64,000 bases of DNA from a virus (IMGVR_UViG_3300028388_006015:11148-75147), one strand, 5' to 3'; shown: positions 35,122-62,520, numbered from the stretch's first letter. Program-made: numbers and translations. The notes: generated by a model not told the origin, from the sequence alone.

Positions 35122-36677
35122 TTAAGCCGGTGCTGTACGACCAATATTTATGAACCGTACCATCTTGCCAGGTGCATACAATTGGAGAGTGCCATAAAGC
35201 AGCACCATAAAGCGCGTTGCAGGGCTCAACACTGCGAGATTCATTTTCATCAAGGGTGCAAGTTGCTTGAACTCGTACACATCGGTAGAATCTTCGAACA
35301 ACATCGCTTCTTGAGTATCAGGCAACCAACGATTACGATCACCAACTTTCGTAGCAGCAGCTCCATCGTATCCTGCAGCAACCTGTGCTGTACTGACGGT
35401 AAACAGTGGATAAAACTTAACATCAGCAATGCTATTTGCATCATCCACTGCAGAACGATAAATCTGGTAAGCTGTGGCCGGGTAAGCACCACCACCGTCA
35501 ACAAACTGAAGATCTACACGATCACTTGCGGCAACTGTATCAGCACCACCACCGTTAAGAATCAACAGAGAAGATTCACCATAACGGTTGATTGCACTAA
35601 CAGCGTAATAGTAGTCTCCTGCATCACCAGCAGCAAAAAGAGATGCGCCGTCAGCATTGACAACAGCTGTTGGAGCTCCACCGGCCGTTGGTGCATTGGG
35701 CGCCTTTTGAGAAGTGGCTGCGGTAGCTTGTTTTTTGAATCCAGGCTTTTTCAGGAACTTGTCGTAACGGAAATTAACCTGACCAAACTGAGTTTGAACA
35801 GCATTAACCCGTTGCCCCATAATGCCTTGAGTGATCTGCTGACTGTTGGGGAAAATTTGCTTGTAGCTCAAGAAGTTTTTAGCAAAATCGCTAAGAACGA
35901 CCGGAGGAGCAAGTAGGGTATCGGGATAGGCATGATTATTGATGAGGATTTCGGAAGCCTCTTCAATCACGGTTTCTGTCAAACGTTCGCCGCGAAGGTC
36001 AACAACAACATCGGATCCCATATAGTCAGTCAGGCTGGAATAGGCGTTGCGATGCTGAGCATACATGCCGTTAGGCTGGAATAGGCGTTGCGATGCTGAG
36101 CATACATGCCGTTGAATTCTTGAGGAACGAGACTGGCATCTCCATAGGCAAGTGCGCGGTCAACTTTGCGGAGAATCCACATCGTACCACTTTTTACCTC
36201 ACTGTTGATCGCTCCACCAACACTGGGCTGAATACGAACCAACTGCATCGGGTGACTAACAGAACGAGTTGTTCCGAGGAACTTTACATGTTCTGCCATC
36301 CGACGGTAAACGGTATCTTCTTCTTCCGGAAGTTCACCTTCATTATTAAAGCCTCCGCGATCTTGACCGTAGCTCACGAGCTGATTGAACTCTTCTACAG
36401 TATTATAGGCGGGAGATTTGTTAACCATTCGCCAAAAGACAATATCGCTTTCACGAAACGTCAAGTGTTTGAGTGTGGACTCGAGAGACTCAACTTTCAA
36501 GGGGGCACCACTGGCTGTTGTAGAGCCTGTGACATCACGGCCGGTAACCTGACCTGCCTCCAATGCTTTGCTCAGGGCAGCGAGGTCTTGCGGGGTGGTC
36601 AACGCCTCCCCGAAAGCCCCATCTCCATTTTGCAACGAAGCGTAGTCCTCAAGGTTTACTCCTAAATTATGTACCAT
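35122..36677 (-). CDS. major capsid protein, frameshifted by a 41 bp duplication (~504 aa when repaired)
   Basis: LSKALEAG..GAPLKVESLESTL, EGELP, EFNG in the 36030-36677 ORF continue into DLRG..LAPLMKMNLA..LLYG in 35122-36066; SPO1/K-type MCP with inserted Ig-like segment. Confidence 0.9.
36032..36113. repeat. exact 41 bp tandem duplication
   Basis: AGGCTGGAATAGGCGTTGCGATGCTGAGCATACATGCCGTT at 36032-36072 and 36073-36113. Confidence 0.95.
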
Positions 36678-36722: not shown

Positions 36723-38315
36723 TTACTGAATGATATGGACGTCGTGCTTTGTCTTGAGATCTTCAACGAGCTGTTGTACCGACAAAACCTTATCTCCATA
36801 AGCTTTTTCCAGATCAGGGTTGTTATCAAACGCCTTTTTCAGTGCTGTCATGTTGTGTGCACTACGACGACCAACTGGAGTGCTTTCTACCGTTTCTAGA
36901 CGATCTGTGAGTTCTTGGATTTGATTCTGAAAGCCCTTTACAATAGTGCCAAAGTTTTCTTTCAATTCATCCTGTGAAGCAGAAAAGTCGTCAAATTTTG
37001 ACGAGAGAACATCTTCAATACCTTTGATGATATTATCAGACGGATTGGTTTGATGTGAAAAATCTTCCAGAGGTGCATTATTTTCACCTTTCGACATTGT
37101 CTGCGAACTAGATTGTCCACCGTTATCTTCTTCATTAACGCCCTCCATTGTCTTATTGGGAGCGCTCATTCCTTGAATGGCCTTAACGAGAGTAGCAATG
37201 GCCTTTTCCATCCTGTCAACCTTTTCCATGGCCTTGTTGAAGTTTTCCATTTCAACAAATTTAGCACCATGGGTGACGTTATTGTCGGTTTTGTTGCTCA
37301 TCTCGACACTTTTTGCGTCAGGACCAGATGATACATCTGAGGGCATAGCTTTTACAATGTTGCCTTCAACGGAAAAACCGAGATCTGTCAATGCTTTCGT
37401 TAGATCTTCGTGAGTAAGTGTATTGTTGGTCGATTGTTGCATCGCTGAACGAATTTTTGCAAAATTATAAATCTTAGAAAATTCAGTGAACGGAATATTA
37501 TGCCTTAGCAATAAATTATAAACGTCACCTTTTGTTAAAACTGATTGCCTAAAATTACTATCTGTAGATTTATTAGACAACGGGGCGTATTTCTTTTCTT
37601 TATCGACACTTTCAAGAATTATTGGCTGATGGCTTTCAATTGTAGCTGCTTTTGCTACTTTGATATTAAAGCTGCGATCTATAGTGATTCGATACCCTTG
37701 ATCATTGGTTACGTCAACAATATACTCTTGACCTCCATCAGCAGGATTCTCTCGAGTGTCAAAAGCCATTTCAGTATCGTCATATTCGCCTTTTATTAGC
37801 GATAGTAACGTATTGCTATTTTTTGGAGTTGGTGTTATTGCACAACCAGTAATCTTGGCTTTCTTTACTTTTCGTGGGTCAAACACGTCGCGTTCTACCA
37901 CTTTTCCTTCTATACTAAAGCCCAGTCGACGATTGGATGAAGATTTTTCTAATGTTTGTGCAAGTGCGTAAACTTTACGTGCTTTTTCGGAATGAGGATA
38001 TAAAAAGCCCTCAACGTGCAATTTTTTACCTTTTACAAATGCCTTTGTTGGTTCGCCCACAATAGATGACGGATCGACACTACCTCTATGGTTGTAGTTG
38101 AAATATCCATGATTGAGAAAAAATGACAGGTCAAAACCAGTAGGGTCGAGCATTTCATCATCCGCATCAAGATCGGGAGTAGACGCTATACCTGCAATCA
38201 TCATTTTACCCTGCTCACTACCATCATCTGCTTTTTGTATCTCAATAGGTACAAAAAACTTAAACTTGTCAGGTACTCCGTTTGTTTTAGAGCGATAATG
38301 TGTATTGTGTAGCAT
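36723..38315 (-). CDS. prohead protease-scaffold fusion
   Basis: GIASTPDLDADDE, GYFNYNH, LGFSIEG, AITPTPKN protease domain, followed by a coiled-coil scaffold rich in Phi-x-K-[AG] sites. Confidence 0.85.
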   Translation of the reverse strand: MLHNTHYRSKTNGVPDKFKFFVPIEIQKADDGSEQGKMMIAGIASTPDLDADDEMLDPTGFDLSFFLNHGYFNYNHRGSVDPSSIVGEPTKAFVKGKKLHVEGFLYPHSEKARKVYALAQTLEKSSSNRRLGFSIEGKVVERDVFDPRKVKKAKITGCAITPTPKNSNTLLSLIKGEYDDTEMAFDTRENPADGGQEYIVDVTNDQGYRITIDRSFNIKVAKAATIESHQPIILESVDKEKKYAPLSNKSTDSNFRQSVLTKGDVYNLLLRHNIPFTEFSKIYNFAKIRSAMQQSTNNTLTHEDLTKALTDLGFSVEGNIVKAMPSDVSSGPDAKSVEMSNKTDNNVTHGAKFVEMENFNKAMEKVDRMEKAIATLVKAIQGMSAPNKTMEGVNEEDNGGQSSSQTMSKGENNAPLEDFSHQTNPSDNIIKGIEDVLSSKFDDFSASQDELKENFGTIVKGFQNQIQELTDRLETVESTPVGRRSAHNMTALKKAFDNNPDLEKAYGDKVLSVQQLVEDLKTKHDVHIIQ

Positions 38316-39610
38316 TACTGACTGTTTTTTCGCGTAATAAGATTTACACGTAATTGCTGAAAGTGTAAACTGTCTAACCCAAGCATTCCTGATTGATAAG
38401 CATTTTGTACGACCTCCATGGATTTACTAATTTCTTCCACACTAGGCCATTCACTCATCGTTCCAATAAAATTGTATAAGCGCTCAAGATAATCAAAATG
38501 CTCAAGAATTTCAACGGGATGATCTAATTGTTTTATTTCTTCAGGCTCCAACCAAGCAAATTCTTCATGCTCGTAATTTAACTTGACCTGAGGATCGTCC
38601 ATCTGTGCAAAAAAACAAAAAACATTCCAATCTGCCTCTTCGCGAACACCAATTAATTGAATTTCACTTGGCAGTGTAATGTTTGTCTCTTCCAGTATCT
38701 CTCTGCGTACAAGATCGTACGGAGATTCGTTTTTATCATCACTAGTGCCACCTGGCAAAAACCATTTATTAGGCTCCCAGGGCGCTTCTGGACCTCTCAG
38801 CAATGTTAATATTTTACCACGACTATTACGTATAATGCATACAGCACCATAATTATCGGCCTCAATTGCCTTCTTTAACTTATCATCAACATCTTTATTG
38901 TGCGTTTCCTTTTTAAGATTTAGTCGCTTTAATAGGTCGCTAATATTAAGATCGACAACATAGCACTTTACTCTAAAATTATCATCAACCTCTAACAAAG
39001 ATGCCCAATAATGATTGTTATCTGTAAGAAATTTATCATTACTTATAACAAACTCTCGTGGAGAAATCTGCTCAAGATCAGCTATGCAGCCAAGAATCTT
39101 TTCGTTATTAAATTCGCTTTGAATGGGCTTTAATTCTTTAACTGGAATAAACTGTACCTTAACCTTAATATCTTGATTGATAAAATGCTGCACAATATCT
39201 TCAACATCGTCTTGATTAATCTGAGGCATTCGATCACGAGTACGCTTAGGATCGGTATATTTAAGGTATTTGTGGTATTTAAGATTAGAGAACTCTAAAT
39301 CTCCCAATATGCCCTGAATTCCTTTTTGTAGCTCATTCTGCTGCAATGTTAATTCATCACACAACAAAGTTAATCGAGAAAGTGCACCGTCTCTTTTATT
39401 ATCATAATACTGCTGCACTTGATGTTTTCCAGAACCTGTTTGTACTTGATTGAATGCATTACTTCGACTCTTCTCTAAATCAACCATCTCATTTTTAAGA
39501 GCTTCAATTTGCCTCTTATATGATATGATATTGGTTAGTGAACGAGCACACGCACTATTTTTTGGCTCAGAAGAGAATAAATTGTCGATTAATTGTGAAA
39601 AATAGCTCAT
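38315..39610 (-). CDS. ParB/Srx-like + Nudix hydrolase fusion
   Basis: RDRMPQI..LKPIQSE..VISNDKFLTDNNHYW (ParB-like, degenerate DGHHR); WFLPGG..ESPYDLVRREILEETNI Nudix box. Confidence 0.75.
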   Translation of the reverse strand: MSYFSQLIDNLFSSEPKNSACARSLTNIISYKRQIEALKNEMVDLEKSRSNAFNQVQTGSGKHQVQQYYDNKRDGALSRLTLLCDELTLQQNELQKGIQGILGDLEFSNLKYHKYLKYTDPKRTRDRMPQINQDDVEDIVQHFINQDIKVKVQFIPVKELKPIQSEFNNEKILGCIADLEQISPREFVISNDKFLTDNNHYWASLLEVDDNFRVKCYVVDLNISDLLKRLNLKKETHNKDVDDKLKKAIEADNYGAVCIIRNSRGKILTLLRGPEAPWEPNKWFLPGGTSDDKNESPYDLVRREILEETNITLPSEIQLIGVREEADWNVFCFFAQMDDPQVKLNYEHEEFAWLEPEEIKQLDHPVEILEHFDYLERLYNFIGTMSEWPSVEEISKSMEVVQNAYQSGMLGLDSLHFQQLRVNLITRKNSQ

Positions 39611-40524
39611 ACTTTTGTGGTTTTGTCACCCACCTTGATTTCAATCTTTGAACGACGCTTAACTTTACGTTGAAATGTCTTTGGTGGCTGAAAAGTTTGT
39701 GTTTTATCATCCCAAATATAATCGTTAGGAACCTGTTCTAGAGTACAGCGACACCAAGGGTGTGTTGGTCCTATTACAGCTTTCCATTGATCGCTTTTTC
39801 TGCCAATATTAGTTCCATTCTGTAGTAGTGTATTGAGTTTAAATACAATCGGACGCGATCCAAGACCTTTTGTTAAGTATAAACGAATGCAATGACGACA
39901 TGCTCCTGGATAAACACTCTTCCATACTCGAACATCATCGCCATATTTTCTCTTAAAGCCATATGCTCTTCCGTGATCGAACCCATAATGCATAATGTAA
40001 TCACTTATGCGTCCAAAATCTCTCGACCAATCTCCTGTACGATGTCCAAGCTTTGATACTAATTGTTTAACATCTTCACGCTTAATGAATGATTTTTCAG
40101 CCTCCTCTTTAATTGCTTGTTCGTACTTTACTCTTTGAACTTGATCTTGCTCGATTAAAATTGTGTGAAATTGGCTTTTAATCTTATTTCCAAGACCTTT
40201 AATGTCATTATATGCAAAATTCTTAATCGCTTTTAAAGCGAATTTTTCTTGACTGTTAAGAGGAACCCATTCACCTGTCTTAATCTTGGTCTTTAATTGA
40301 GCAAATGTTAATTTATTAGCCTCCTTGTCGCTCATTAGTGTTGACATAATGCCAAACATAAAGTTGAGGTCGATGATATTAACGTCATCAGCCTCAACTA
40401 ATTGTTTTACTCTATCTTGCTCCTGAGCTGTAAGAACTTCCATGCCAACACTTGAAGCAATAAAAATCAAATGCTGCAGTTCGATAAGTTCAAGAAGCTC
40501 ATGTATTTGATCGTTGGATAGCAT
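39607..40524 (-). CDS. MuF / SPP1 gp7-like head morphogenesis protein
   Basis: DWSRDFGRI, ACRHC, GPTHPWCRC. Confidence 0.75.
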   Translation of the reverse strand: MLSNDQIHELLELIELQHLIFIASSVGMEVLTAQEQDRVKQLVEADDVNIIDLNFMFGIMSTLMSDKEANKLTFAQLKTKIKTGEWVPLNSQEKFALKAIKNFAYNDIKGLGNKIKSQFHTILIEQDQVQRVKYEQAIKEEAEKSFIKREDVKQLVSKLGHRTGDWSRDFGRISDYIMHYGFDHGRAYGFKRKYGDDVRVWKSVYPGACRHCIRLYLTKGLGSRPIVFKLNTLLQNGTNIGRKSDQWKAVIGPTHPWCRCTLEQVPNDYIWDDKTQTFQPPKTFQRKVKRRSKIEIKVGDKTTKV

Positions 40525-40651
40525 TTAATTTTTTTACAATTTTTGCACTCATCTTCCCTAATACTGCTTGATATTTTTTCAGAAACTCTTTCTCGTATTG
40601 AGTAGTAACGGAATACTTAGGAAGATCTCTGTACTTGCTCTTTTTAGCCAT
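40499..40651 (-). CDS. 50 aa basic small protein
   Basis: Manual translation MAKKSKYRDLPKYSVTTQYEKEFLKKYQAVLGKMSAKIVKKLNAIQRSNT; starts right after the upstream stop. Confidence 0.4.
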   Translation of the reverse strand: MAKKSKYRDLPKYSVTTQYEKEFLKKYQAVLGKMSAKIVKKLNAIQRSNT

Positions 40652-41386
40652 TTAAAAACGAATTGGTGTCCAATTTAATCCAATCCCGACATAAGGTGCG
40701 GGACTTACCGCATTATTATTTAATGTGAATCCGTATCCAACCGAAACCCCAATGCCAAACTTATTGGTAAGTCTGTCGATGATAATAGCTTCACCATCTA
40801 CAATATCAATATATGGATTGTCGGTTGTAATATCAACAACTGAAGAACGCTTCTTAAAAAAGCCGCCCTTACGCTCAGTAATTTGAGAGGTGAGAGTTGC
40901 ATATGTTTTGAATGCAAGGTCGATCGAATCTTGAGTAGCAACAACGCTCCAATCTGCATACGCGTCTTGATTTTCACCATAATATGCATACTCAGGACAG
41001 TCGTTAGTGATTGTATTGTTTACGGGCACAGGAATTTCAACATATTCAGTATCTATTACCTCACGCGTTAATGTTGGAACGCTACCTTTATATTTGAGCT
41101 CAGCAACTAAGCGCGTATAATTGCGAATCAGACGATCTTGCTTCCGCACCTCTTTAAGAGCTTGATTGAGAAGAGAGTCTTTTTCTGAATACGCCCCTTC
41201 AATCTCATTACGATCAAGAACTAATGCTTCAATGCGAGTATGCGTTTGGTTGAGACTGTCTTTGTACGTATTAATAACGTCGGTGTGATAACTTTCAAGT
41301 TCGCGATGAATTCTTTGTTCCCTCGCACAAAATGATACCGATAACACGATACCGATTGCAAGTATGATGAATAGCCACTTTGTCAT
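40652..41386 (-). CDS. spanin-like membrane protein
   Basis: N-terminal TM helix, coiled coil, C-terminal amphipathic beta strands FGIGVSVGYG..PYVGIGLNW ending in Phe. Confidence 0.55.
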   Translation of the reverse strand: MTKWLFIILAIGIVLSVSFCAREQRIHRELESYHTDVINTYKDSLNQTHTRIEALVLDRNEIEGAYSEKDSLLNQALKEVRKQDRLIRNYTRLVAELKYKGSVPTLTREVIDTEYVEIPVPVNNTITNDCPEYAYYGENQDAYADWSVVATQDSIDLAFKTYATLTSQITERKGGFFKKRSSVVDITTDNPYIDIVDGEAIIIDRLTNKFGIGVSVGYGFTLNNNAVSPAPYVGIGLNWTPIRF

Positions 41387-41390
41387 AATA

Positions 41391-41993
41391 TTAATATTGT
41401 TTGATTACGTTTTTGATTACGTCCAAGTCAAGACACATTCCCGCCACTCCAATAACTTCATTATTGCGAAATCGCGGATATTTTTGAACAACTAAAAGTG
41501 TAGTTTCGCCTTCAGGGTTTACAAACTTTTCTACACCAATCCAACTCATTTTATTTTCGACAACCCACTTATTGTTCTCCATATAACGCTCAGCAAATTT
41601 TTGATCATTATATAGATCACTTATCTTTTTGCCAATGCAATCCTTTGCACTCAAATTATAATCATTGAGAAATGTTCGCTCATACTCTTTATTGACATAT
41701 AGCATTACACCATCTATGGATGTAAGCCAATGAGCGTTAACGTGATCATAAGTTGCCGATTCAAAGAACACTATTTGAGATTGTAAGATATATACCTGTT
41801 TTTGCAATTCTCCAATCAACAAGTCATTTCTCTCAACCTCTTGTTTTAATGCCAATCTCTCAGCCTTGTATTCACTAATGATTAATACAAGCTCGTCCAT
41901 ATTTGTTTTTCGTCGCGTTGCCAAGTATGTTAAAAAACCACTAATGACAGTGGACGAGAATATAGCTATAACTAGCTGTAATACATTGTCCAT
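41391..41993 (-). CDS. holin-like TM + coiled coil + PAS domain protein
   Basis: One N-terminal TM then RRK, a heptad coil, then WLTSIDGVMLYVNKEYE..DCIGKKISDLY..KYPRF..VIGVAGMCLD (PAS_4-type). Confidence 0.75.
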   Translation of the reverse strand: MDNVLQLVIAIFSSTVISGFLTYLATRRKTNMDELVLIISEYKAERLALKQEVERNDLLIGELQKQVYILQSQIVFFESATYDHVNAHWLTSIDGVMLYVNKEYERTFLNDYNLSAKDCIGKKISDLYNDQKFAERYMENNKWVVENKMSWIGVEKFVNPEGETTLLVVQKYPRFRNNEVIGVAGMCLDLDVIKNVIKQY

Positions 41994-41999
41994 GGGAAT

Positions 42000-43595
42000 T
42001 TAATTAAAAGCACCACTCTTTAGCTCGTCCTCAAAGGCTTTATAAACGGGGTTTGCATTAAAATCATAAAACTCGCCCTGATCTCCTTCTTCGTTATACT
42101 CATCAATGGCCTCGTTACTTTCTTGTCCACCCATAGCTTGTTGTGAGAGCCATTGAATATATTGAGGATTAAGAACAATATCATCGTCTTCAAGATCACG
42201 AGGAAGACCTGCTTTTTCACGAGCTTCTTTGAGTCCCATAATAGAGCCGACTCTTTTAGCATCAAGTTCTACTTCATCTTTTTCGTTTTCAGAATCAAGA
42301 CCAACAAACTCCAAAACAAATTCGTCAGTTAATGGCTCAATAAGCCACCTATTAAGCTTTCTTTGAATAAAACGCATTAATGGTCTCAATCCTTTATCAC
42401 GACTATATTTCAATCGCGCTTCATTATTTCCTTCAAAAAGAGACTGGCTTCCTGAACTTCCACTAAGATGAAAACCAATCTCACTAGGGTCAATACGATA
42501 TACACTACATGCAATCTTCAACAAGTATTCTTGCCACTTAGAGAATTCCATGTCTCGATTAGACTTTTGCATATCTATCCATTCAAAATCATCAGCCTGG
42601 ATCAATGGAGTCTTCCAGCTATTTTGAACACCCGAAACCATTGACCACCATTCTTGACGAAATTCGCTAAGTCGCGTTTCGTTTACAACACCTGCAGCCT
42701 TCCAAACTCCCTTTGGAGCACTTCCTTGAGAAAAGAAGTTACCATTATGCTGATCACCCCACAACATCCATGTTACAATCTTAATAAGTACCTCCAATTC
42801 ACTCATTCCATACCCATTGCTCGTTAAAGTGTTTTGAGGATTTCTGATACCTAAACACATTTCCCAAGGATAGAAATAAGAGATGATCGTATCCTCATAA
42901 AGCTGAACATATTCAGGAGCATATCCATTAACCTTTTGAATATCAGCACTATCATACGTATGATCGACCTTACGAATAGTTGAGCTGTCGCATGTTACAA
43001 ATTCAGTCGGTCTAAAACGACGATCTTGTACGACCTCGAATGCAGCATGATCAAGAACAAGACTGTCAGAAAGCCACTTTCGAATAAAATCCTCAATATT
43101 ATCACCAACCCACTTCTTATCTTCCACGCTACAATTGAGAATGAATTTTTCCAACTCCCTTACCTTCTTGTTGTTGTACAACTTTTCATTGCCATCTCTC
43201 TTATTGCGTTCTCTACGTACAAAGCGAAATCCAACCTCATATTTTTCCCATGCAGGTTGAAGAAATTCGCACACTTGATCTATTCTCGTTCCAATAACTG
43301 CAGCAATTACAGGCGTTTTGGCAATTTTGCGCAACATTTTTTCAGAAACACCAGCAAAACGTTGTTGGTATCCACGAGTATTGTTGTTGCTATAGGGATC
43401 TGAAATTATTGTTGATCGCTTACTTGTATTGGCTTGTTGTTTCGCACTTTGTTGTAATTGTGCAGATACAGAATATGCCTTCATTATTGAATGAGGGTCG
43501 TTGGATAGCATGGCCTTGTGCAGCACTTCTTGTTGACGTGCTTGTAGGTCTTGTATCTGCTTAGATATCTGTTGTAATTCTGTTAATTCTGACAT
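42000..43595 (-). CDS. portal protein
   Basis: IRNP..GYGMSELE, NFFSQGSAPKG, DMEFSKW..IACSVYRIDPSEIG, GLRPLM, EAREKAGL. Confidence 0.92.
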   Translation of the reverse strand: MSELTELQQISKQIQDLQARQQEVLHKAMLSNDPHSIMKAYSVSAQLQQSAKQQANTSKRSTIISDPYSNNNTRGYQQRFAGVSEKMLRKIAKTPVIAAVIGTRIDQVCEFLQPAWEKYEVGFRFVRRERNKRDGNEKLYNNKKVRELEKFILNCSVEDKKWVGDNIEDFIRKWLSDSLVLDHAAFEVVQDRRFRPTEFVTCDSSTIRKVDHTYDSADIQKVNGYAPEYVQLYEDTIISYFYPWEMCLGIRNPQNTLTSNGYGMSELEVLIKIVTWMLWGDQHNGNFFSQGSAPKGVWKAAGVVNETRLSEFRQEWWSMVSGVQNSWKTPLIQADDFEWIDMQKSNRDMEFSKWQEYLLKIACSVYRIDPSEIGFHLSGSSGSQSLFEGNNEARLKYSRDKGLRPLMRFIQRKLNRWLIEPLTDEFVLEFVGLDSENEKDEVELDAKRVGSIMGLKEAREKAGLPRDLEDDDIVLNPQYIQWLSQQAMGGQESNEAIDEYNEEGDQGEFYDFNANPVYKAFEDELKSGAFN

Positions 43596-54796: not shown

Positions 54797-55900
54797 TTAC
54801 ATGTCTTTAACAAGCTTACCTCCCATTAATTGCCATGTTTCGTTAGGAATCTGTTCACGCAAATGCGTGTCGAGACTGCTACTTGCATAATTCATCGCAC
54901 CTTCTAGATCTTTTTCTAAAATGTATTCTCTCAATGTGCGCAATTTCATTGCATCATTTTTGCTAATAACGTTATCTCTTAGCCCTTGAGCAATCGCTAC
55001 ACTCATATTATTGTAATGTTCGCGCCATTGCTTTTTTGAAGGACCTTTTTTATCTGCGCTCTTTGCTTTTGTATCTTCTTGCTGCTTATCTTTTGATTGA
55101 GCTTGATCTTCCTTCGACTGTTCTTTTTGTTTTTTACCAACTGCATGATCACCTAACCAATCTTCATAATCATCGTGGACCTGTTTAACACGATCAGGAG
55201 GTAATTTGTCTAAAAGATCACTAATTCCTTTATGATGTCTATCCATTGCCTCTTGTGAAGACTTGGAATATCCTTCGTGAGCAGTATATTTTTGCCCTTT
55301 TCCTGTTATTTCTACAAGATCGTTGTATTCTTCTGCCAATGCTCCATGTAAATCGGCCATTTCTCCAGTTCCTGCCCAACTTTTTCCGTCGTGACCTTGC
55401 TTTTCTTGATTAATATAAGATCGTATCGACTCGTGATAATCAGACAACTTTTTATTACCCTGCTTATTATCCTTTGAGCCTTTACTGCTCTTCTGATCTT
55501 TGTTCGCCTTAGACTTTTTACTCGCATCGTCTTTACTAGATACACTTCCTCCTTTTGCGTACGGCTTCCATCCTTGAGCAGTTTTAATTACTTTTTTGCC
55601 GCCATGAGTCGAAATGGTTCCTATTGGCTTACCTCTTTCGGCTTTTTCCAACACGTCACTACCGCTCAAAAAAAAATTAAGTGCTTTTTCAATATCCTGC
55701 TCGTCGTTCTCATTTTCCTGCTCATCCTCGTCTTCATCTTCGCCTTTAAGTAGGCCCTGATCAACACGCCTCTCGATCTCAGCAGCAAAAATCTCTTTCC
55801 ATGGACTATTTATGGGAAGAGCTGCATATGCATTATCGAGTTGGCTTAATGAGTATTCAGATAAATCTTGACGTTGTTCTTGTGATTTTGCAGTATCCAT
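54797..55900 (-). CDS. putative internal head protein with shared tag
   Basis: IEKA..LEKA followed by GKPIGTISTHGGKKVIKTAQGWKPY. Confidence 0.6.
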   Translation of the reverse strand: MDTAKSQEQRQDLSEYSLSQLDNAYAALPINSPWKEIFAAEIERRVDQGLLKGEDEDEDEQENENDEQDIEKALNFFLSGSDVLEKAERGKPIGTISTHGGKKVIKTAQGWKPYAKGGSVSSKDDASKKSKANKDQKSSKGSKDNKQGNKKLSDYHESIRSYINQEKQGHDGKSWAGTGEMADLHGALAEEYNDLVEITGKGQKYTAHEGYSKSSQEAMDRHHKGISDLLDKLPPDRVKQVHDDYEDWLGDHAVGKKQKEQSKEDQAQSKDKQQEDTKAKSADKKGPSKKQWREHYNNMSVAIAQGLRDNVISKNDAMKLRTLREYILEKDLEGAMNYASSSLDTHLREQIPNETWQLMGGKLVKDM

Positions 55901-55901
55901 G

Positions 55902-56093
55902 TTACTTGTTTTTAACTTCAATCAAACGACCTCCATGATATTCTCGAAGTTTAACAAAAGTATCGTCCTCGAGAGCTTGTTTGGCAGCTAATTCAAGACG
56001 CTGTTCTCCATACATGCCAACATATTGAAGTAGATTGACCTTATGTTTTTTATTGTAAAGCTCAATATATGAAATTTGCGGTTGATTATTCAT
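55902..56093 (-). CDS. small hypothetical protein
   Basis: Probable start MNNQPQ at 56093, overlapping the upstream stop. Confidence 0.5.
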   Translation of the reverse strand: MNNQPQISYIELYNKKHKVNLLQYVGMYGEQRLELAAKQALEDDTFVKLREYHGGRLIEVKNK

Positions 56094-56892
56094 CGTCAAA
56101 GTATTTGGTAATGTCATTATACATATTAGGAAATACACTCTTAAACACTTCCCATTTCAAAATACGCGCAGTAAAGCAATGAGTAAAGATTTCTGCATAT
56201 TTTGCACCAGGCCTACTCCAATATTCTTTTGCATGACCTACACCATAATTCCCTTTAGTTAATGCTGCAAAAGTATCACATATAGCACCAAATTCTGACG
56301 AGATCTTGTTTGACGCATTTGGTCCCATAATAGCAACCTTTGCATCGCGCCAATGACGATAAACCTCTTCAGGTGGGGAACTTGCTAAGCCTTTAAGTGC
56401 ACTTTTACTTTTACTGTTAACGCGATACTGAAAATCCGCATAACCCTTACGAACAGCCTCTTTTACTTCTGGGTCGAAATCTTTATATCGACCGTGAATA
56501 ACATTGCTTGTATGATGAAGTGCATGTCCAAGTTCGTGAACAAATACTCGAAAGTCATCAAACTTATCTTCAAGAACTATCTGTTGATCAATTGGACTGT
56601 AATGAGCTTGAATAACATTAGCTTCTTGATTAAGAGTTTTTCTTACAGTAACTCCCTTTTCCGCACAATAATGAATGGCATGCATTAACTTATCTGCACT
56701 TTCCTTATCCAGACGACCAATCTCTCTATTCCATCGCTGCTCTACATATTCGGTAAGATCCATAACGACCGATGGAACTTGATTGTTGTCCTCGTCAAGT
56801 ATTTTCTCAACGACATATTTCCATCCATCAACGGTCTTTTTGACCTTTTTGCCGCCATGTGTGCGAATCGTACCTATTGGGAAGCGTTTCAT
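56086..56892 (-). CDS. zincin metallopeptidase-domain protein with shared N-terminal tag
   Basis: PIGTIRTHGGKKVKKTVDGW at N-terminus; FVHELGHALH; GHAKEYW..AEIF. Confidence 0.7.
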   Translation of the reverse strand: MKRFPIGTIRTHGGKKVKKTVDGWKYVVEKILDEDNNQVPSVVMDLTEYVEQRWNREIGRLDKESADKLMHAIHYCAEKGVTVRKTLNQEANVIQAHYSPIDQQIVLEDKFDDFRVFVHELGHALHHTSNVIHGRYKDFDPEVKEAVRKGYADFQYRVNSKSKSALKGLASSPPEEVYRHWRDAKVAIMGPNASNKISSEFGAICDTFAALTKGNYGVGHAKEYWSRPGAKYAEIFTHCFTARILKWEVFKSVFPNMYNDITKYFDDE

Positions 56893-56895
56893 TGA

Positions 56896-59301
56896 TTAAC
56901 TTTGCAGTGTTACCATTGCAATCTTCTTCCAGTCACGTCCTGTACCTTTCATTTGCTGCTGAATCTTGATCATATTACCAAGTGTACGTGCATTCAGCTT
57001 ACCTTCACGAATCTTATGGGCATTTTCTTCAATGAATGATACTGCTTCGTTACGTTCTTGTTCTGTTGTCATCAATTCCTTGCCATCTGCATCCTCAATT
57101 GGCATCTTATGAACAATCTGCTTCAGACGCTCAACTGTTTCGTCAACTGTCATTGACAAGTCACATGCGAGAGCACGACTATCAACGAGTGGCTGTGGCA
57201 TATCTTGAGGTGCAAGGTTGGAGATGAAAATAACACGACCTGTAAATGCAAAACGCTTAGGCACTATTGCAACACCTTTTGCATTTTCATGACCTTCTTT
57301 GGATGTTTTAATATCTCGACCACTGTCGTATACTACTGTTCCATCACCACTTGTATCAAGTGCTCCTTTAAAAATGTTAACACTAGTCTCGTCTTGTAGT
57401 ACACTGTCACAATCATCAAATACGATTGTTTTGCCATTGTGCTCGTACAGTGCTTTAAACATCGCGGTAGGAGTAGATTTGCCTGTGATCTTGACAAAAT
57501 CGTATTCTTCAGGTTGATTAACATCGTGCCCTTGATCGTACGGATTGAATTCTACGCGATTGTGACGCTTCATCACCTGCTTTAACGTGTAAGTGTTGTG
57601 CGTTACTGTATACCCTTCTGTTAAATATAGTGACTCAACATCTGAGACAGTAATACAAGTACATTCACCATCTTGTACTTGAGTAATATCGACAATGGCT
57701 TGTCCTCTAACATTCTTACGACGTTTTTTTGACTGCCATATATCTGCCTTTCTTGATAATCGAAATGGACAGTATTCAGGTGGCATTTGAAAGTTAATAG
57801 CCCAAGCATCGCCACTTGTACGCTTTTGCTTAGTAAGAGTAGCTTTGCGACCAAATGACTTAACTATCTCGTGAAAATCTTTAGCAAGAGTATCGCTAAC
57901 AGTGTAATATATGCACACACCATTCTTGCCGATAGTACCATCTGTATCCATCATTCCTTGAATTAACGCATGACGTTGCTGAATACTACCGTAACGATAT
58001 TGTTCAGGAATAAACTTTGTGTGACTGTCTTTGTTCGCCAGACCAAATGATTGTAATGCTTTTGATAGATGAACTCGATCTTCACCAAGAATACGATAGC
58101 TGTTGCTATTTTTAGATGAAAGATTGAGATGACCAAACGCCTTATGAAATTCACTATCATCCTCGTCGCCAACACTAATCAATAATGCATGATTGTCGAT
58201 TCGAGTTAGACATCCATCTCCCAAGAAATAGCCTAATAGATAAGGGTCTATTTCTTGATCTTTTTCAGTGTGCTGAGCAGGTTGTGCGTATGGAATGAGA
58301 TATCGCCACTCTGGCCAAATCTTATTGCCATTTTTAGTTGTCCCCTCTTCTCGCAGTCGTAATTTACGCTCCATTAATTGTTCTGTGGTCAGAACTCTCC
58401 AGCGACCTCCGTGCTTACGCTTTTTTGTATCTTTGCAAAACCACGATGTTTTGTCCCACACCTTCCATAAGTGATCTCGACCAGCAGGTAATATAGTACC
58501 ATCCATCAATTTGATTTCAAACACCTCTTTTGTGCCTTGAGGGTGAACTTGAAGTACGACAGTCTCCTCGCCGTTTGCATTTAAAACCTTATCTCCAGCT
58601 TTAACTTCTCCGTGAGTAGTAAATCCATTTGGAGTATAGATTTTTGATGAGTTCAACATCTCTTTACCAACTCCACCCGTACCAAATGCAATAACTGACT
58701 TAGAAAGTCCAGTGGCACACATATCAAGAAATACATCATATGCATCCCAACGCTGTTCTACGTCAATTTGAGGAGCAGCCTGATCAATAATTTTTGGATC
58801 AACACTACGTTTTGGGGTAGGTGCTACTTTCGTTCCAATACCAAATTCCTTGGAGATCTGATGAACGCGAGAATAATTTGCTCCCGTTAAAGAAGCGATC
58901 TGCTTTTTGTCTGTCATTCCTAACTTAAACAACCCGCGAATCTTGGCACTTTGATTTGTGTTTGCATTGATAATGCTGTCAATTTTATCTTCAACGGAAA
59001 CACTCTTTTTGTGCTTAACTGGTTTTTGCTCGTCAGTTTTGACATACACTGTTCTGCGATGACCTCTCTTATCAACAATTTGCTTACGTTGTAGCTTAGC
59101 AATGTCTTTCTTGGCTTTTTCAAGTACATCTTCATCAATTGCTCCCTCATTAAAAGATTTCTGTATCGCATTAATATACGTAGCAATATCCTTTTCAAGC
59201 CAAATGTGAGAGTAGCTTTTTTTAAGTTGTTCTAGAGTCGGCAGATCATTCTCTACGAACATTGATTTGTTTATATTGATGTTGAGCGTCGTAAATTCCA
59301 T
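56896..59301 (-). CDS. HTH + AAA-type P-loop ATPase containing an intein
   Basis: Walker A GTGGVGK|T split by the intein; GKSTP..LY, IVFDDCD Walker B, KGALD, FTGRVIFISN, SRA. Confidence 0.85.
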   Translation of the reverse strand: MEFTTLNININKSMFVENDLPTLEQLKKSYSHIWLEKDIATYINAIQKSFNEGAIDEDVLEKAKKDIAKLQRKQIVDKRGHRRTVYVKTDEQKPVKHKKSVSVEDKIDSIINANTNQSAKIRGLFKLGMTDKKQIASLTGANYSRVHQISKEFGIGTKVAPTPKRSVDPKIIDQAAPQIDVEQRWDAYDVFLDMCATGLSKSVIAFGTGGVGKEMLNSSKIYTPNGFTTHGEVKAGDKVLNANGEETVVLQVHPQGTKEVFEIKLMDGTILPAGRDHLWKVWDKTSWFCKDTKKRKHGGRWRVLTTEQLMERKLRLREEGTTKNGNKIWPEWRYLIPYAQPAQHTEKDQEIDPYLLGYFLGDGCLTRIDNHALLISVGDEDDSEFHKAFGHLNLSSKNSNSYRILGEDRVHLSKALQSFGLANKDSHTKFIPEQYRYGSIQQRHALIQGMMDTDGTIGKNGVCIYYTVSDTLAKDFHEIVKSFGRKATLTKQKRTSGDAWAINFQMPPEYCPFRLSRKADIWQSKKRRKNVRGQAIVDITQVQDGECTCITVSDVESLYLTEGYTVTHNTYTLKQVMKRHNRVEFNPYDQGHDVNQPEEYDFVKITGKSTPTAMFKALYEHNGKTIVFDDCDSVLQDETSVNIFKGALDTSGDGTVVYDSGRDIKTSKEGHENAKGVAIVPKRFAFTGRVIFISNLAPQDMPQPLVDSRALACDLSMTVDETVERLKQIVHKMPIEDADGKELMTTEQERNEAVSFIEENAHKIREGKLNARTLGNMIKIQQQMKGTGRDWKKIAMVTLQS
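57595..58662 (-). mobile_element. class 3 intein (356 aa) with LAGLIDADG homing endonuclease
   Basis: Starts EMLNSSKIYTPNG; block B DHLW; LLGYFLGDG and QGMMDTDG; block F CTCITV; ends VTHN before Thr+1. Confidence 0.88.
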
Positions 59302-59360
59302 ATGTGTAAGTTTTCGGTAAAAATAACAAACTTTTCAACGCAATAAAACAGGGATACAAT

Positions 59361-59392
59361 AAAAAAAGAGTAGCCCCTGTAAGGAACTACTC
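59361..59392 (-). terminator. intrinsic terminator
   Basis: Minus strand GAGTAGTTCCT..AGGGGCTACTC followed by T7. Confidence 0.7.
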
Positions 59393-59421
59393 ACTCATCT
59401 GTGTCTAAGAAAAGTTCGCGA

Positions 59422-59928
59422 TTACTTGGCGGTCATCTTCTTCTTGGAAGAAGCGCTCTTACGCGTGGTCTTTTTCTTAGGTGATGCGGCCTTGACGGCC
59501 TCAGCCACTGCATCGTTGTCGACAGGCGTAACCTCATCGGCCGCGCGTACCTTCATGCGGAGTTTGTACGTGGTGATTGTACTGTGGACAAAACTGTAGT
59601 GTGCTCCGATTGCACGGGCAATGTCTGCAATTTTCACTCCACAATCGTACAGGGCGCGCATTTTGGCGGACTTGGAGAGGGACGTATCTTCGATGATCGC
59701 AGTTTGCTCTTTAGTTGGCACAAACTCTTTTTCGACAGACGTTTCGCGCAGTTTCGCGATCACATCATCCAGGAGGTGGCTTTTCTTTTTGTTCACCATC
59801 TCAGTAACGTCAACACCGTCTTCTTGAGTGCTGTACTCTGTTTGTGTGGGAATACCCATTTCGGTTGCGAGGGTGCGGAGATCGGCTACTTTGAGTTTGC
59901 GTACTTCAGTGATTGTGATGTTTTTCAT
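59422..59928 (-). CDS. HeH + HTH + basic-tail DNA-binding protein (paralog of 1653-2483)
   Basis: LKVADLRTLATEMGI..KKKSHLL; SKSAKMRALYDCGVKIADIARAIGAHYSFVH; K-rich end. Confidence 0.7.
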   Translation of the reverse strand: MKNITITEVRKLKVADLRTLATEMGIPTQTEYSTQEDGVDVTEMVNKKKSHLLDDVIAKLRETSVEKEFVPTKEQTAIIEDTSLSKSAKMRALYDCGVKIADIARAIGAHYSFVHSTITTYKLRMKVRAADEVTPVDNDAVAEAVKAASPKKKTTRKSASSKKKMTAK

Positions 59929-59971
59929 CTTCTTGTTGTTTAGTTGTTAAAAATGTTGTTGTTTAATTCCT

Positions 59972-60120
59972 GATATAAAGATCTGACTTATTTACCGTAT
60001 AGGCAACAATTAAGTCAAATTTTTTCAATTTTTTTTCGACCATCTTTTTGGCCGCTTTTGTTGATATAAAGATACGCTAAGATCTCGTCGTAGGCAACAG
60101 TTGATTAAAATTTTTTTAAA
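59972..60120 (-). promoter_or_regulatory. two tandem promoters TGTTGCCTA-N17-ATCTTTATATC with upstream A-tracts
   Basis: Identical boxes and spacing at 59972-60008 and 60063-60099 (91 bp period). Confidence 0.7.
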
Positions 60121-60132
60121 TTATGTGCAGAA

Positions 60133-61917
60133 TTAACTTGGCACGACACGATAGTATAATGAGTCACTAACTTCATACTCCGAATACTCGTTGTCTTGAG
60201 GTGCTATTTGTTTAGTGTCTTTTTTATCTTTCATCCAAGGACTAACTGGATGGTCGTCTGCATATTTTAATCCTGCAGGAAGCTTAGGTCTCATTCCCCA
60301 TATTTGATTTCTAATTTGCTGAGGTGTTGTTCTGCGCTTTGTTGATGCTACCTCGATATAATAATTATCGTTGATCTTTCTCACATCCTCAGTAACATCT
60401 CTTAATACATATCCATCACTATCAACATTAAGCTTGTCTAGTTCTTTGCCGAATCGTTCAATTTTATCCTCAAACGTTCCACCTCCTTTTTCTGAAGGAA
60501 TATCTATTCCAAGATTGCCATACGCTAAGTGCACAGCATTCTCAACAGGACTTCCTGCGCGACCTGTTAATTTTTTAGCAGCTTCTTTATATGCTGGTGG
60601 TAATTGCTTTTCTCCTCCCTCAAACGACATAACATACATCCCTCTACGACGTACAACTAAACTTCCCGGCACTCCTGCATACAGATATGGAGCAACAAAC
60701 ACTTTTCCTTTATCCACTAAAGATTGCACGGTTTTGGGCCAGGTTGATTTGTCATCTATGTATGAATCAGGCTCAGCCTGTGCACCTCCATATATTCCAC
60801 CAGAATGAATGGTATCAAGAAATTGCTGTTCACGCTTAGTTAGGCCTGTCTCAGTCTTCTGCTGTTTCTTCTTTTCAGGCTTTGGTGACGATGTTGTTTG
60901 TTTTGCTTTAACTCCTTTCGTCGCAGTATACACGTGACTGTAATGCATTCCAAGATCTTTGGCAATATCTGCCTTCTTATGTCCCAGTTCGTGCAGAATT
61001 CTCGCACCTTCACTTTTATTAACATATCCCTCGTCGATCATTCCATTGATCATTCCGCGCACATCTTCATCTGTCATCTGTACAACAAAACTCGGATCTT
61101 GTAATTCCTCGGCACCGGCCTGTGCCTCGTGACCTGCATGTTTAGCAATTGCGTCAAGAATAGGTACTGCTTTTGCACCTGCTTGTTGATTAACGTTTTT
61201 TGGACCTTCTTGTTGTGCAATCGTTTGAAGCTCTTGATTAATTACTTGAATTCGAGTGCCTATTAACGCTTTGCCTGCAGGAGTTAGGTTTTTAAGTTGT
61301 TTCGAAACATTGTTGAGGTCAGCTCTCATCTCTTCCAGTTTACCTTTAGATGCTGCTGTCACAAGTTTTGCAAAAGCACTGCTCGACATAGCGAATGGAT
61401 GATCTTTATCATATACGCTTTTTAGTGTGCGCTTAGTAGACATGCCACTATCTGGATGAACAGGTACATACTGACCGGTTCTTTTTTGAGGCTTAGGACG
61501 CGATTTTTTGCGATGTGCTTGATTTCCAGGAACGTCAGGATCATTTCCAGGTGTATGTGTAATGTCTGACTCCAACATTGCAATCTTTTGCTTCAGGCCA
61601 TCAACAACAGCCGGATCTTGCTGATATAGCGGCTTCTTTTGATAACTTGCAAGTTCTTTGTGAGCGCGATGTAGTTCATCATTCAGTGATGCGTTTTTCC
61701 CAGAAGTACTTCCTTTATAAGGACGCCACCCTTGAGCGGTCTTGATTACTTTTTTGCCACCATGAGTTGAAATGGTGCCAATAGGTTTTCCTTTGCCGCC
61801 CTTAATAATGTCGTCAGGATACAACACGTCATCTTCGTCTGAAGTATTGGAAAATGATTTGTAGATATTAGCGATGCGCTGTTTATTGATGTTGAGGATA
61901 TCATCAAAATGATCCAT
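60133..61917 (-). CDS. putative internal head protein with shared tag and HTH
   Basis: RIANIYKSF leader, IIKG-GKGKPIGTISTHGGKKVIKTAQGW, internal NKSEGARILHELGHKKADIAKDLGMHYSHVY. Confidence 0.65.
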   Translation of the reverse strand: MDHFDDILNINKQRIANIYKSFSNTSDEDDVLYPDDIIKGGKGKPIGTISTHGGKKVIKTAQGWRPYKGSTSGKNASLNDELHRAHKELASYQKKPLYQQDPAVVDGLKQKIAMLESDITHTPGNDPDVPGNQAHRKKSRPKPQKRTGQYVPVHPDSGMSTKRTLKSVYDKDHPFAMSSSAFAKLVTAASKGKLEEMRADLNNVSKQLKNLTPAGKALIGTRIQVINQELQTIAQQEGPKNVNQQAGAKAVPILDAIAKHAGHEAQAGAEELQDPSFVVQMTDEDVRGMINGMIDEGYVNKSEGARILHELGHKKADIAKDLGMHYSHVYTATKGVKAKQTTSSPKPEKKKQQKTETGLTKREQQFLDTIHSGGIYGGAQAEPDSYIDDKSTWPKTVQSLVDKGKVFVAPYLYAGVPGSLVVRRRGMYVMSFEGGEKQLPPAYKEAAKKLTGRAGSPVENAVHLAYGNLGIDIPSEKGGGTFEDKIERFGKELDKLNVDSDGYVLRDVTEDVRKINDNYYIEVASTKRRTTPQQIRNQIWGMRPKLPAGLKYADDHPVSPWMKDKKDTKQIAPQDNEYSEYEVSDSLYYRVVPS

Positions 61918-61941
61918 GAGAATGGTATTTATATTAAACAA

Positions 61942-62448
61942 TTATAATTTTGAAAGAGCTTTGGCATGACCATTTAACGACTGTCTCCAGTAATCGTCTG
62001 TTTTTTGTTCAATCCACGAATATTCGTCCGTATCTCTTAAATTACCAACTTTATTAGAATGCTGCTTGAATCGATTCTTCCAAGCATCAGAATCACGCTT
62101 AGGCTTTGTTTTTTTTATCGTAGAGCTTGTGTCTTTACCACTTTTATGAGCAGCAACGAGTTGATTTATAACATCAATACTAACGCCATGATGTTTAGCT
62201 GTTAATTCGACTTTTTGCCCATAAGTACGCTCAGATTTATCTTTGCTCTCAGTATGTGGTTTCCATCCTTGCGCAGTCTTTATCACTTTTTTACCACCGT
62301 GCGTACGAATCGTACCAACTGGAAGAGCTCTTGCTTTTTCAATGGAATCACCACCATCATCTTCGTTTGGTGAAGTGTTGATGAATGACTTGTAAATATT
62401 GTTGATTCGATTGCGATTGGTATTGAAGATTTCGTCAAAAGAACTCAT
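61942..62448 (-). CDS. putative internal head protein with shared tag
   Basis: RINNIYKSF leader, IEKA-RALPVGTIRTHGGKKVIKTAQGW; probable start 62448. Confidence 0.6.
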   Translation of the reverse strand: MSSFDEIFNTNRNRINNIYKSFINTSPNEDDGGDSIEKARALPVGTIRTHGGKKVIKTAQGWKPHTESKDKSERTYGQKVELTAKHHGVSIDVINQLVAAHKSGKDTSSTIKKTKPKRDSDAWKNRFKQHSNKVGNLRDTDEYSWIEQKTDDYWRQSLNGHAKALSKL

Positions 62449-62520
62449 TGTTAATGTATTTTGTGAAGTTAAAATGCGAACAGTAAAGCTCATAAAAAAA
62501 TACACAAAAATCAATTAGGG

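Follow-up and report, generated by a model that had tools for sequence, protein, structure and literature searches.

Four otherwise unrelated proteins of an uncultured Bacteroidota phage share a short basic tag, and it is somewhat probable, judging from sequence and gene context, that they are cargo of the phage head, packed into the capsid, shortened by cleavage and injected together with the DNA. They are encoded in the window, the whole 64,000-nucleotide stretch analyzed from phage genome IMGVR_UViG_3300028388_006015, by four minus-strand ORFs of 374, 268, 602 and 190 amino acids (p374, p268, p602 and p190). The original prediction had placed a common motif on four otherwise different proteins of this region, and all four copies are present where it put them, with the 20-residue core P[IV]GTI[SR]THGGKKV[IK]KT..GW invariant at 16 of 20 positions. 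A profile search of the 75-kb record returned exactly these four copies, and outside the tag the proteins do not align with one another except in a leader. No model in Pfam, PHROGs or NCBIfam matched the tag or its sister tag, and BLAST searches at DNA and protein level with the region, p190 and p268 retrieved none of 50,697 phage records.

The tag is not a recent DNA copy, because identical residues use different codons. Between any two tags, 16-20 residues are identical, and 7-11 of these have codons that differ; those of p374 and p602 are identical at 20/20 residues and differ in 9 codons. Selection acts on the tag peptide, not on the DNA. Recent duplication and a recombination joint were both rejected on these synonymous differences. 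It is accordingly very improbable that the shared segment is a functionless by-product of module shuffling, a linker kept as the joint between gene cassettes. The tag does fall precisely where exchangeable modules meet, and its carriers are strongly mosaic, but such a joint should be conserved as DNA, and the peptide is conserved across phages of different bacterial phyla.

In three of the four proteins a hydrophobic-x-K-[A/G] word precedes the tag by 4-5 residues (LEKA in p374, IIKG in p602 and IEKA in p190), as had been predicted. The predicted leader common to two proteins is also real, being found at the N-termini of p602 (from M9) and p190 (from M23, whose coordinate, 62448, is the end point that the original prediction gave), with a looser version in relatives. 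The cargo differs from protein to protein, as anticipated. On the minus strand, p190 (61942..62514, likely start M23) consists of the leader helix (62335-62448), IEKA (62332-62343) and the tag core at residues 65-84 (62263-62322), followed by ~100 amino acids of cargo, a charged region with no matches. The p602 protein (60133..61941, minus strand, likely start M9 at 61917) has the leader, IIKG (61798-61809), the tag core at residues 53-72 (61726-61785) and a weakly matching HTH module (60919-60999), and an Atlas search with its cargo gave nothing above chance. In p374 (54797..55921, minus strand), a 98-amino-acid acidic leader containing three words, LLKG (55742-55753), IEKA (55682-55693) and LEKA (55640-55651), runs up to the tag core at residues 99-118 (55568-55627), beyond which lies a charged C-terminal region without matches.

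The remaining tagged protein, p268 (56086..56892, minus strand), is a zincin-like metallopeptidase with HELGH at residues 119-123 (56524-56538). Its tag core is at the extreme N-terminus (residues 5-24, 56821-56880); it has no leader, and it lacks the word because its tag begins at residue 5. The C-terminus matches phrog_4728 at 3e-5 and does not reach the level of Pfam MPTase-PolyVal. By structural likeness (Atlas), this cargo is similar to modules that occur fused to the minor capsid and portal proteins of phages (Phage_min_cap2- and portal-fused modules, TM 0.53-0.65); longer, fused relatives of p268 were sought and none were found. The block also encodes an AAA-type ATPase, p801 (56896..59301, minus strand), whose orthologues in related phages are tagged. 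Its N-terminus is leader-like, with four hydrophobic-x-K-[S/A] words in residues 10-63 (LEKA at 59113-59124), and the protein contains an HTH (58852-58941) and an intein-like LAGLIDADG insert (57595-58662) that splits the P-loop. As a fifth tag copy p801 was rejected, since the profile has no match in it and BLAST to a tagged orthologue aligns the ATPase part only.

The AlphaFold2 model gives the basic beta element as a meander of three strands (residues 47-50, 53-58 and 61-64, pLDDT ~90), preceded by a helix at residues 2-23 and a low-confidence linker at 24-46 that contains IEKA. As modelled, the tag would be a basic three-stranded beta-meander and the leader a helix, with the site in a flexible linker. 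The net charge of the tag core averages +4.2 per 27 amino acids and is +6 to +7 in the window copies; the core has a conserved aromatic residue, and the segment before the tag is neutral to acidic. As read from sequence, the unit is a portable cassette of ~55 residues, made up of a leader or helix (often acidic), a linker with 1-2 words, and the basic meander. A PDB sequence search with the tag profile returned chance rows only (E above 0.2), and fold searches with the tag model, which is too small for a firm search, likewise had no significant hit (best VIA Z 2.1, best Foldseek E 1.5). Among the Foldseek hits was a 34-residue phiKZ capsid chain (8y6v_I), which we did not count.

The tagged genes of the window are separated from the portal gene by 11-20 kb, on the far side of the fibre genes, a distance that weighs against cargo loading; they share strand and block with the fibre, portal, MuF, protease and capsid genes. 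The prohead protease (residues 8-169; phrog_1028, head maturation protease, 6e-54) is fused to a scaffold-like region (36723..38315, minus strand) and has the word LIK/GE at the protease-scaffold junction (37785-37799; the slash marks the predicted cut), which is kept between this protein and L012. The SPO1-type major capsid protein, which is related to SPO1 gp6.1, is divided into two ORFs through a 41-bp duplication (35122..36677, minus strand) and contains a conserved LSK/ALEAG word at residues 35-38 (36564-36575). The rest of the head module (38315..43595, minus strand) includes the portal (42000-43595), a MuF-like protein (39607-40524) and a Nudix protein with four hydrophobic-x-K-[G/A/S] words (38315-39610).

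This word is over-represented 6- to 20-fold in the window's protease-scaffold protein relative to composition-preserving shuffles, which ignore coiled-coil periodicity; the broad form, hydrophobic-x-K-[G/A/S], occurs 17 times against 2.7 expected, and the strict form 9 times against 0.45, with 0/20,000 shuffles reaching 9. Enrichment is confined to K at P1 (z 9.2), A and G at P1' (z 10.5 and 6.1) and L/I/M at P3. It is also seen in relatives (13 vs 2.4 and 8 vs 2.1), including phage MA9V-3 (9 vs 1.8), and in the SPO1 scaffold (11 words vs 1.3 expected). Furthermore, hydrophobic-x-K/A[LM][ES]AG is found at one place, the capsid N-terminus, in the window, three relatives, a Firmicutes prophage and SPO1. 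Because the word marks both the protease-scaffold protein and this conserved capsid spot, it is best read as a predicted prohead-protease site, which is its most likely role. HK97 gp4 cuts after Lys; for SPO1-type capsid proteins, a search of the literature for a mapped cut site found nothing usable.

A profile of the motif and a survey of the domains fused to it, both proposed with the original prediction, extended the family well beyond this phage. The profile matched 1,625 protein clusters at E<=1e-3 (217 at E<=1e-10), and the domains of the tag bearers are those of the polyvalent repertoire, including LPD1, NUDIX, Topoisom_I (topoisomerase IB), InPase, ART-PolyVal, Zeta toxin, SAM lyase, ddrB-ParB, Kinase-PolyVal, RelA_SpoT, RadC and SNF2. 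Giant multi-enzyme phage proteins are among them, and the tag punctuates large polyproteins internally. Two to four copies, with a median spacing of 305 amino acids, were found in 100 of 126 tag-bearing representatives, and 96 of the 126 have their first copy no more than 60 residues from the N-terminus. Nearly all tags (244/260) are directly behind hydrophobic-x-K-[G/A/S], with a site logo of L/I/F at P3, E at P2 (56%), K at P1 and G (67%), A (25%) or S (8%) at P1'; twin sites 4-16 residues apart, mostly 8-9, accompany 102 of 260 tags. Portal, MuF, protease or capsid genes are located within 10 kb of the tag in 16/19 contigs, and in the Firmicutes prophage a tag-Zeta toxin gene lies between those for an InPase-MuF protein and a PBECR-methylase-SNF2 polyvalent protein. 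Among carriers of the tag, Chryseobacterium phage MA9V-3 (host Chryseobacterium indologenes) was the only cultured one found, and it was also the sole match to tag-bearing P0019 and P0017 among 50,697 phage records. Species-representative bacterial genomes scanned for the tag yielded one locus only.

Packaging, cutting, DNA binding and ejection of the tagged proteins are all steps that we infer. The precursors would be expressed along with the head genes and pass into the procapsid as it assembles, where the leader, the tag or both may bind the protease-scaffold core. The SPO1-type prohead protease would cut after the lysine, as predicted for its own scaffold region and the capsid N-terminus, thus removing the leader and, in the large polyvalent relatives, also separating enzyme modules. 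The basic meander would stay at the new N-terminus of each fragment and most likely anchor it to the packaged DNA or to the inner wall of the capsid until it exits with the DNA, and the zincin, ATPase, HTH and other modules may act early in the new host. The location of the tagged proteins near head genes and the polyvalent enzyme repertoire partly support such loading. The scheme first proposed, in which a leader, a protease site and a basic beta module load the head, agrees with the cassette grammar, the word, the repertoire and the head-gene context, but the tag is not only N-terminal. It is possible, with the chances leaning slightly against, that this cut-and-keep cassette of leader helix, Lys-specific prohead-protease site and basic beta-meander is a general route in phages with SPO1-type heads, infecting Bacteroidota, Firmicutes and spirochaete hosts, by which polyvalent and solo effectors are loaded, cut into modules and held on DNA for injection, the acidic leader masking the basic tag until the protease removes it.

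The cassette grammar is not uniform, because p268 has neither leader nor site and Nudix proteins of relatives carry the tag after the enzyme; in the latter, a cut at the site would part the tag from its cargo. The head does not need the tag: in SPO1, whose capsid is of this type, a tblastn search with one tag-bearing protein turned up no copy. ATPases and HTH regulators are, moreover, unusual capsid cargo, which counts against cargo loading. Since hydrophobic-x-K-G always accompanies the tag, the word could also be part of a folded module and not a cut site. The tag might instead be a nucleic-acid- or partner-binding module working inside the infected cell, capped by the word, which attaches proteins to DNA or to a single factor of host or phage and has no part in capsid loading. 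Several copies per protein would fit avidity for a polymer such as DNA, and the strongly basic core with its conserved aromatic residue, the tags on DNA enzymes (topoisomerase IB, ParB, SNF2) and HTH proteins, and the fact that word and tag are almost never apart all agree with this role. We nevertheless consider it unlikely, as it leaves unexplained both the position of the tag among head genes and the enrichment of the word in the protease-scaffold proteins together with its conservation at the capsid N-terminus, places where no tag follows, and the model puts the word in the flexible low-confidence linker, outside the fold.

Another enzyme could do the cutting. If the cassette directed processing by the co-encoded zincin (p268; MPTase-type peptidases of polyvalent proteins) and not by the prohead serine protease, the zincin would recognize its substrates by the tag and would itself join them through it. 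The window's zincin is itself tagged, tags are located at module boundaries, and Iyer et al. 2017 proposed that zincin metallopeptidases process polyvalent proteins (PMC5512222). However, no homologue of this zincin was found in 20 tag-bearing loci examined, and the scaffold enrichment and the conserved capsid place, including that of SPO1, in which no tag was found, point to the head protease, making a zincin signal quite unlikely.

If cargo loading is correct, the cut-and-keep cassette would explain the packaging and processing of polyvalent proteins and would provide a short tag for loading foreign proteins into SPO1-type capsids. Injection of proteins along with phage DNA is known in some cases and predicted in others. 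To our knowledge, the way such proteins are directed to the capsid has been worked out for T4 and few other phages only, and for the huge class of polyvalent proteins it has been an open guess. The cassette offers a concrete, testable grammar for one large phage lineage, with a peptide that can be fused to reporters and a cultured pair in MA9V-3 and C. indologenes. It would also make candidate injected proteins recognizable from sequence alone, including anti-defence SAM lyase, ADP-ribosyltransferases and Nudix hydrolases.

The tag itself is new to Pfam, NCBIfam and PHROG, while the concept is known from the T4 capsid targeting sequence (CTS) and from polyvalent proteins. The CTS of T4 (IPI-III, Alt) is a short N-terminal element shared by diverse proteins beside a prohead-protease site, and the proteins that bear it are taken into the scaffolding core and injected (PMC3012670). 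The window's tag is similarly found on otherwise unrelated proteins next to a putative protease site, but it has no sequence likeness to the CTS, and p268 has no leader. The T4 prohead-protease site is L/I-x-E, whereas the site here is hydrophobic-x-K-[G/A], with Lys at P1. In T4 the CTS is removed; here a conserved beta-meander follows the site and would stay on the mature protein, and copies of the cassette are also found within polyproteins. The T4 system is proven, and the tag system is known here from sequence and predicted structure.

In Iyer, Burroughs, Anand, de Souza and Aravind 2017, the enzyme repertoire of polyvalent proteins is predicted to be capsid-packaged (PMC5512222), and relatives of the tag carry this same domain repertoire among virion genes. 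The four window proteins, each with at most one recognizable cargo, resemble the "solo forms" mentioned there and fall outside the 2 to 15 disparate domains given for polyvalent proteins, a range that many tagged relatives do reach; the window proteins and their relatives lie near virion (late) genes, as described for phage versions. A term search of that paper's main text turned up no description of this tag or of cleavage at a lysine. In the giant phages SPN3US, phiKZ and 201phi2-1, a prohead protease removes N-terminal propeptides of head and ejection proteins at a short motif, often present several times per propeptide (PMC10052503). The 3-4 words in the p374 and p801 leaders are reminiscent of this arrangement, but the protease lineage and motif are different and the giant-phage propeptides have no conserved tag after the site.

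Effectors and toxins fused to MuF or SPP1 gp7 have a head-internal carrier joined to variable enzymes and delivered with the DNA (PMC5512222). Zeta toxin is found behind the tag and also in a cyanophage PSS2 protein annotated "head morphogenesis" or "minor head protein". The MuF/SPP1 gp7 carrier is a ~110-amino-acid folded portal-binding domain, whereas the tag is a 20-residue basic meander with a predicted cut site. The WW domain is similar to the tag in size and in predicted three-stranded topology, but none was returned for the tag by Pfam, PDB sequence or fold searches; W-rich tag variants loosely resemble the WW pattern (PxG ... G..Y ... W.P), which we take as a lead only. Finally, the window phage encodes a protease of the SPO1/HK97 type, and the word before the tag is the motif enriched in the scaffold region and conserved in the capsid protein, a putative substrate motif of this protease.

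The peptide tag was re-located on p374, p268, p602 and p190 (named for their lengths in amino acids), and all four copies lay exactly where the original prediction had placed them. The core comprises 20 residues from P to W (P[IV]GTI[SR]THGGKKV[IK]KT..GW), of which 16 are invariant across the four proteins. The p374 and p602 copies are identical, and a profile search of the whole record returned these four copies only. The lysine-containing word noted ahead of three copies was confirmed (LEKA, IIKG and IEKA), and in p268 the tag sits right at the protein start. The N-terminal leader that p602 and p190 were proposed to have in common is also present, provided that the proteins start at M9 and M23, respectively.

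The window covers the 64 kb at the right-hand end of an IMG/VR record of 75,147 bp, whose completeness is estimated at 72%. All genes in the window are on the minus strand. The phage is contractile-tailed with an SPO1-type head module, and its minus-strand genes encode a tail sheath (29728-31341), a prohead protease fused to a scaffold-like region (36723-38315), a Nudix protein of the head module (38315-39610), a MuF-like protein (39607-40524) and a portal (42000-43595). Its capsid protein has relatives in SPO1 (gp6.1) and in Bacteroides DAC phages. A perfect 41-bp tandem duplication (36032-36113) shifts the frame of the major capsid gene and splits it into ORFs 36030-36677 and 35122-36066, whose products share the 13 residues encoded at the joint; the duplication is an artefact of the assembly or else marks a defective variant. 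The tagged cluster lies upstream of the head module in transcription order and runs 385-aa protein, p190, p602, 168-aa HTH protein, p801 (ATPase), p268 (zincin), p374, Ig-like protein and giant fibre. The first 219 residues of the 385-aa protein (62521-63678), immediately upstream of the tagged genes, match phrog_3704 (8e-60), labelled "ferredoxin" in the moron/host-takeover category, and the protein had no match in Pfam. A second common module, a helix-turn-helix segment of about 28 residues, occurs in the 168-aa protein (59575-59658), p602 (60919-60999), p801 (58852-58941) and the relative P0076. The p801 ORF (56896-59301) also contains an intein-like insert of 356 aa (57595-58662) that includes a LAGLIDADG domain and interrupts the ATPase P-loop between GGVGK213 and T570. 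The insert has the classical His-Asn|Thr end, with an apparent start of Glu instead of Cys or Ser, and the intein-free orthologue P0063 aligns to both of its flanks.

The tag is a widespread module. Its carriers among IMG/VR relatives are small proteins, Nudix proteins and an orthologue of the p801 ATPase that lacks the intein, and one protein of 1,079 aa has three copies. A profile built from 14 sequences (A4) matched 350 of the scored candidate proteins from a 5.8-billion-sequence collection, and 1,625 clusters at E<=1e-3 (217 at E<=1e-10) among 1.84 billion representatives. In a set of 126 representatives, drawn from ranking and match lists biased towards multi-copy proteins, 100 contained two to four tags, spaced 305 residues apart at the median, and 96 had their first tag within 60 residues of the N-terminus. 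Pfam domains between copies included LPD1, NUDIX, topoisomerase IB, DUF5661, InPase, ART-PolyVal, Zeta toxin, SAM lyase, ddrB-ParB, Kinase-PolyVal, RelA_SpoT, RadC, SNF2 and sigma-70 region 4. No model of the tag itself was found in Pfam, PHROG or NCBIfam. A sister tag, EGSRGGKVIGHTKSGKPIY followed by H..F..DH.DA, stands directly behind hydrophobic-EK-GG in two compared loci (L007, 11586-12077; L009, 3052-3606) and in proteins P0002, P0154, P0190 and P0215. It co-occurs with the first tag in the same polyproteins, is absent from the window and matched no Pfam model.

An AlphaFold2 model of p190 residues 23-110, based on 35 aligned relatives, has a helix at 2-23 (pLDDT 85-92). Residues 24-46, which include IEKA, form a linker modelled with low confidence; three short strands follow at 47-64 (pLDDT about 90), with disorder beyond. 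Fold searches with the tag model were uninformative, as the unit is too small.

A word of the form hydrophobic-x-K-[G/A/S] precedes 244 of 260 tags, with L/I/F at P3, mostly E at P2, K at P1 and G, A or rarely S at P1'; 102 of the 260 have another such word 4-16 residues further upstream. As a candidate protease site, the word was checked in proteins lacking the tag against composition-preserving shuffles. In the protease-scaffold protein of the window, the strict word occurs 9 times versus 0.45 in shuffles (none of 20,000 reached 9) and the broad word 17 times versus 2.7, with coiled-coil periodicity ignored. Position by position, enrichment was confined to K (P1), A or G (P1') and L, I or M (P3). 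Over-representation of the word was seen again in three related phages and the cultured phage MA9V-3. Elsewhere in the window, 20,390 encoded residues yield 15 strict words, and the tagged cluster accounts for 6 of these. With shuffles that again ignore coiled-coil periodicity, hydrophobic-x-K-S occurs 11 times in the SPO1 scaffold gp3.3 (1.3 expected) and 8 times in the SPO1 protease (1.6 expected; L019, NC_011421.1 41157-44097), and the words in SPO1 suggest that a Lys-specific maturation motif, with another preference at P1', extends across the lineage. In the capsid proteins of the window phage, three relatives, a Firmicutes prophage and SPO1, a single spot 21-38 residues in carries hydrophobic-x-K and then A-[LM]-[ES]-A-G, and the N-termini ahead of it are otherwise diverged; in SPO1 it reads DALNK|ALEAG at residue 21 (L019, NC_011421.1). 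The junction word between protease and scaffold is also conserved. Because the word is enriched in untagged scaffold proteins and conserved at this capsid spot, we infer that the SPO1-type prohead protease cuts at this word. The HK97 protease likewise cuts after lysine. A literature search found no mapped cut site for an SPO1-type prohead protease. The Nudix head protein and the portal have four and five broad words, respectively (p about 0.04 and 0.03), and may also be processed.

Of 19 distinct contigs with the tag, 16 have homologues of the window portal, MuF, protease or capsid genes within 10 kb of it; most of these phages are kin of one another, so the 16 are not independent observations. 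The lytic myovirus MA9V-3, which infects Chryseobacterium indologenes, carries five tags on four proteins, namely an ATPase, a Nudix protein and two others, whose genes directly adjoin that of the protease. The Firmicutes (Acutalibacteraceae) prophage has the setting classic for polyvalent proteins, with terminase, portal, methylases, an InPase-MuF protein, a tag-Zeta toxin protein and a PBECR-methylase-SNF2 giant.

The original prediction held that leader, protease site and basic module load diverse proteins into the head for ejection with the DNA. The order of these elements and the head-gene context partly support this, and we lean towards the cassette being a loading-and-processing device for head cargo. 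The placement of the tag calls for a correction: it is not confined to N-termini but is a module-boundary element found also inside polyproteins and after cargo. The looser leader, also carried by proteins with a different post-site tag, would be as good a candidate as the tag for the part that does the targeting. The tag core is strongly basic (mean +4.2 per 27 residues; +6 to +7 in the window) and the segment ahead of it neutral to acidic. Among other readings, a DNA- or partner-binding tether with no tie to packaging is an unlikely explanation. That the cassette is a processing signal directed to the zincin appears more doubtful still. A recombination joint is highly improbable, and is contradicted by the codons: between any two copies in the window, 7 to 11 of the 16 to 20 identical residues are encoded by non-identical codons. 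The peptide is under selection and did not arise by recent copying of DNA.

A cargo-loading role for the cassette would also depart from the T4 capsid-targeting sequence in its fate, as the conserved tag would stay on the mature fragment, whereas the T4 sequence is removed. The domain repertoire between tag copies is that of the polyvalent proteins, for which Iyer et al. (2017, PMC5512222) predicted packaging and injection; in the sections consulted and by term search of the main text, that work does not describe the tag. The tag is a variant of themes already known, namely polyvalent proteins and tags for capsid targeting and processing.
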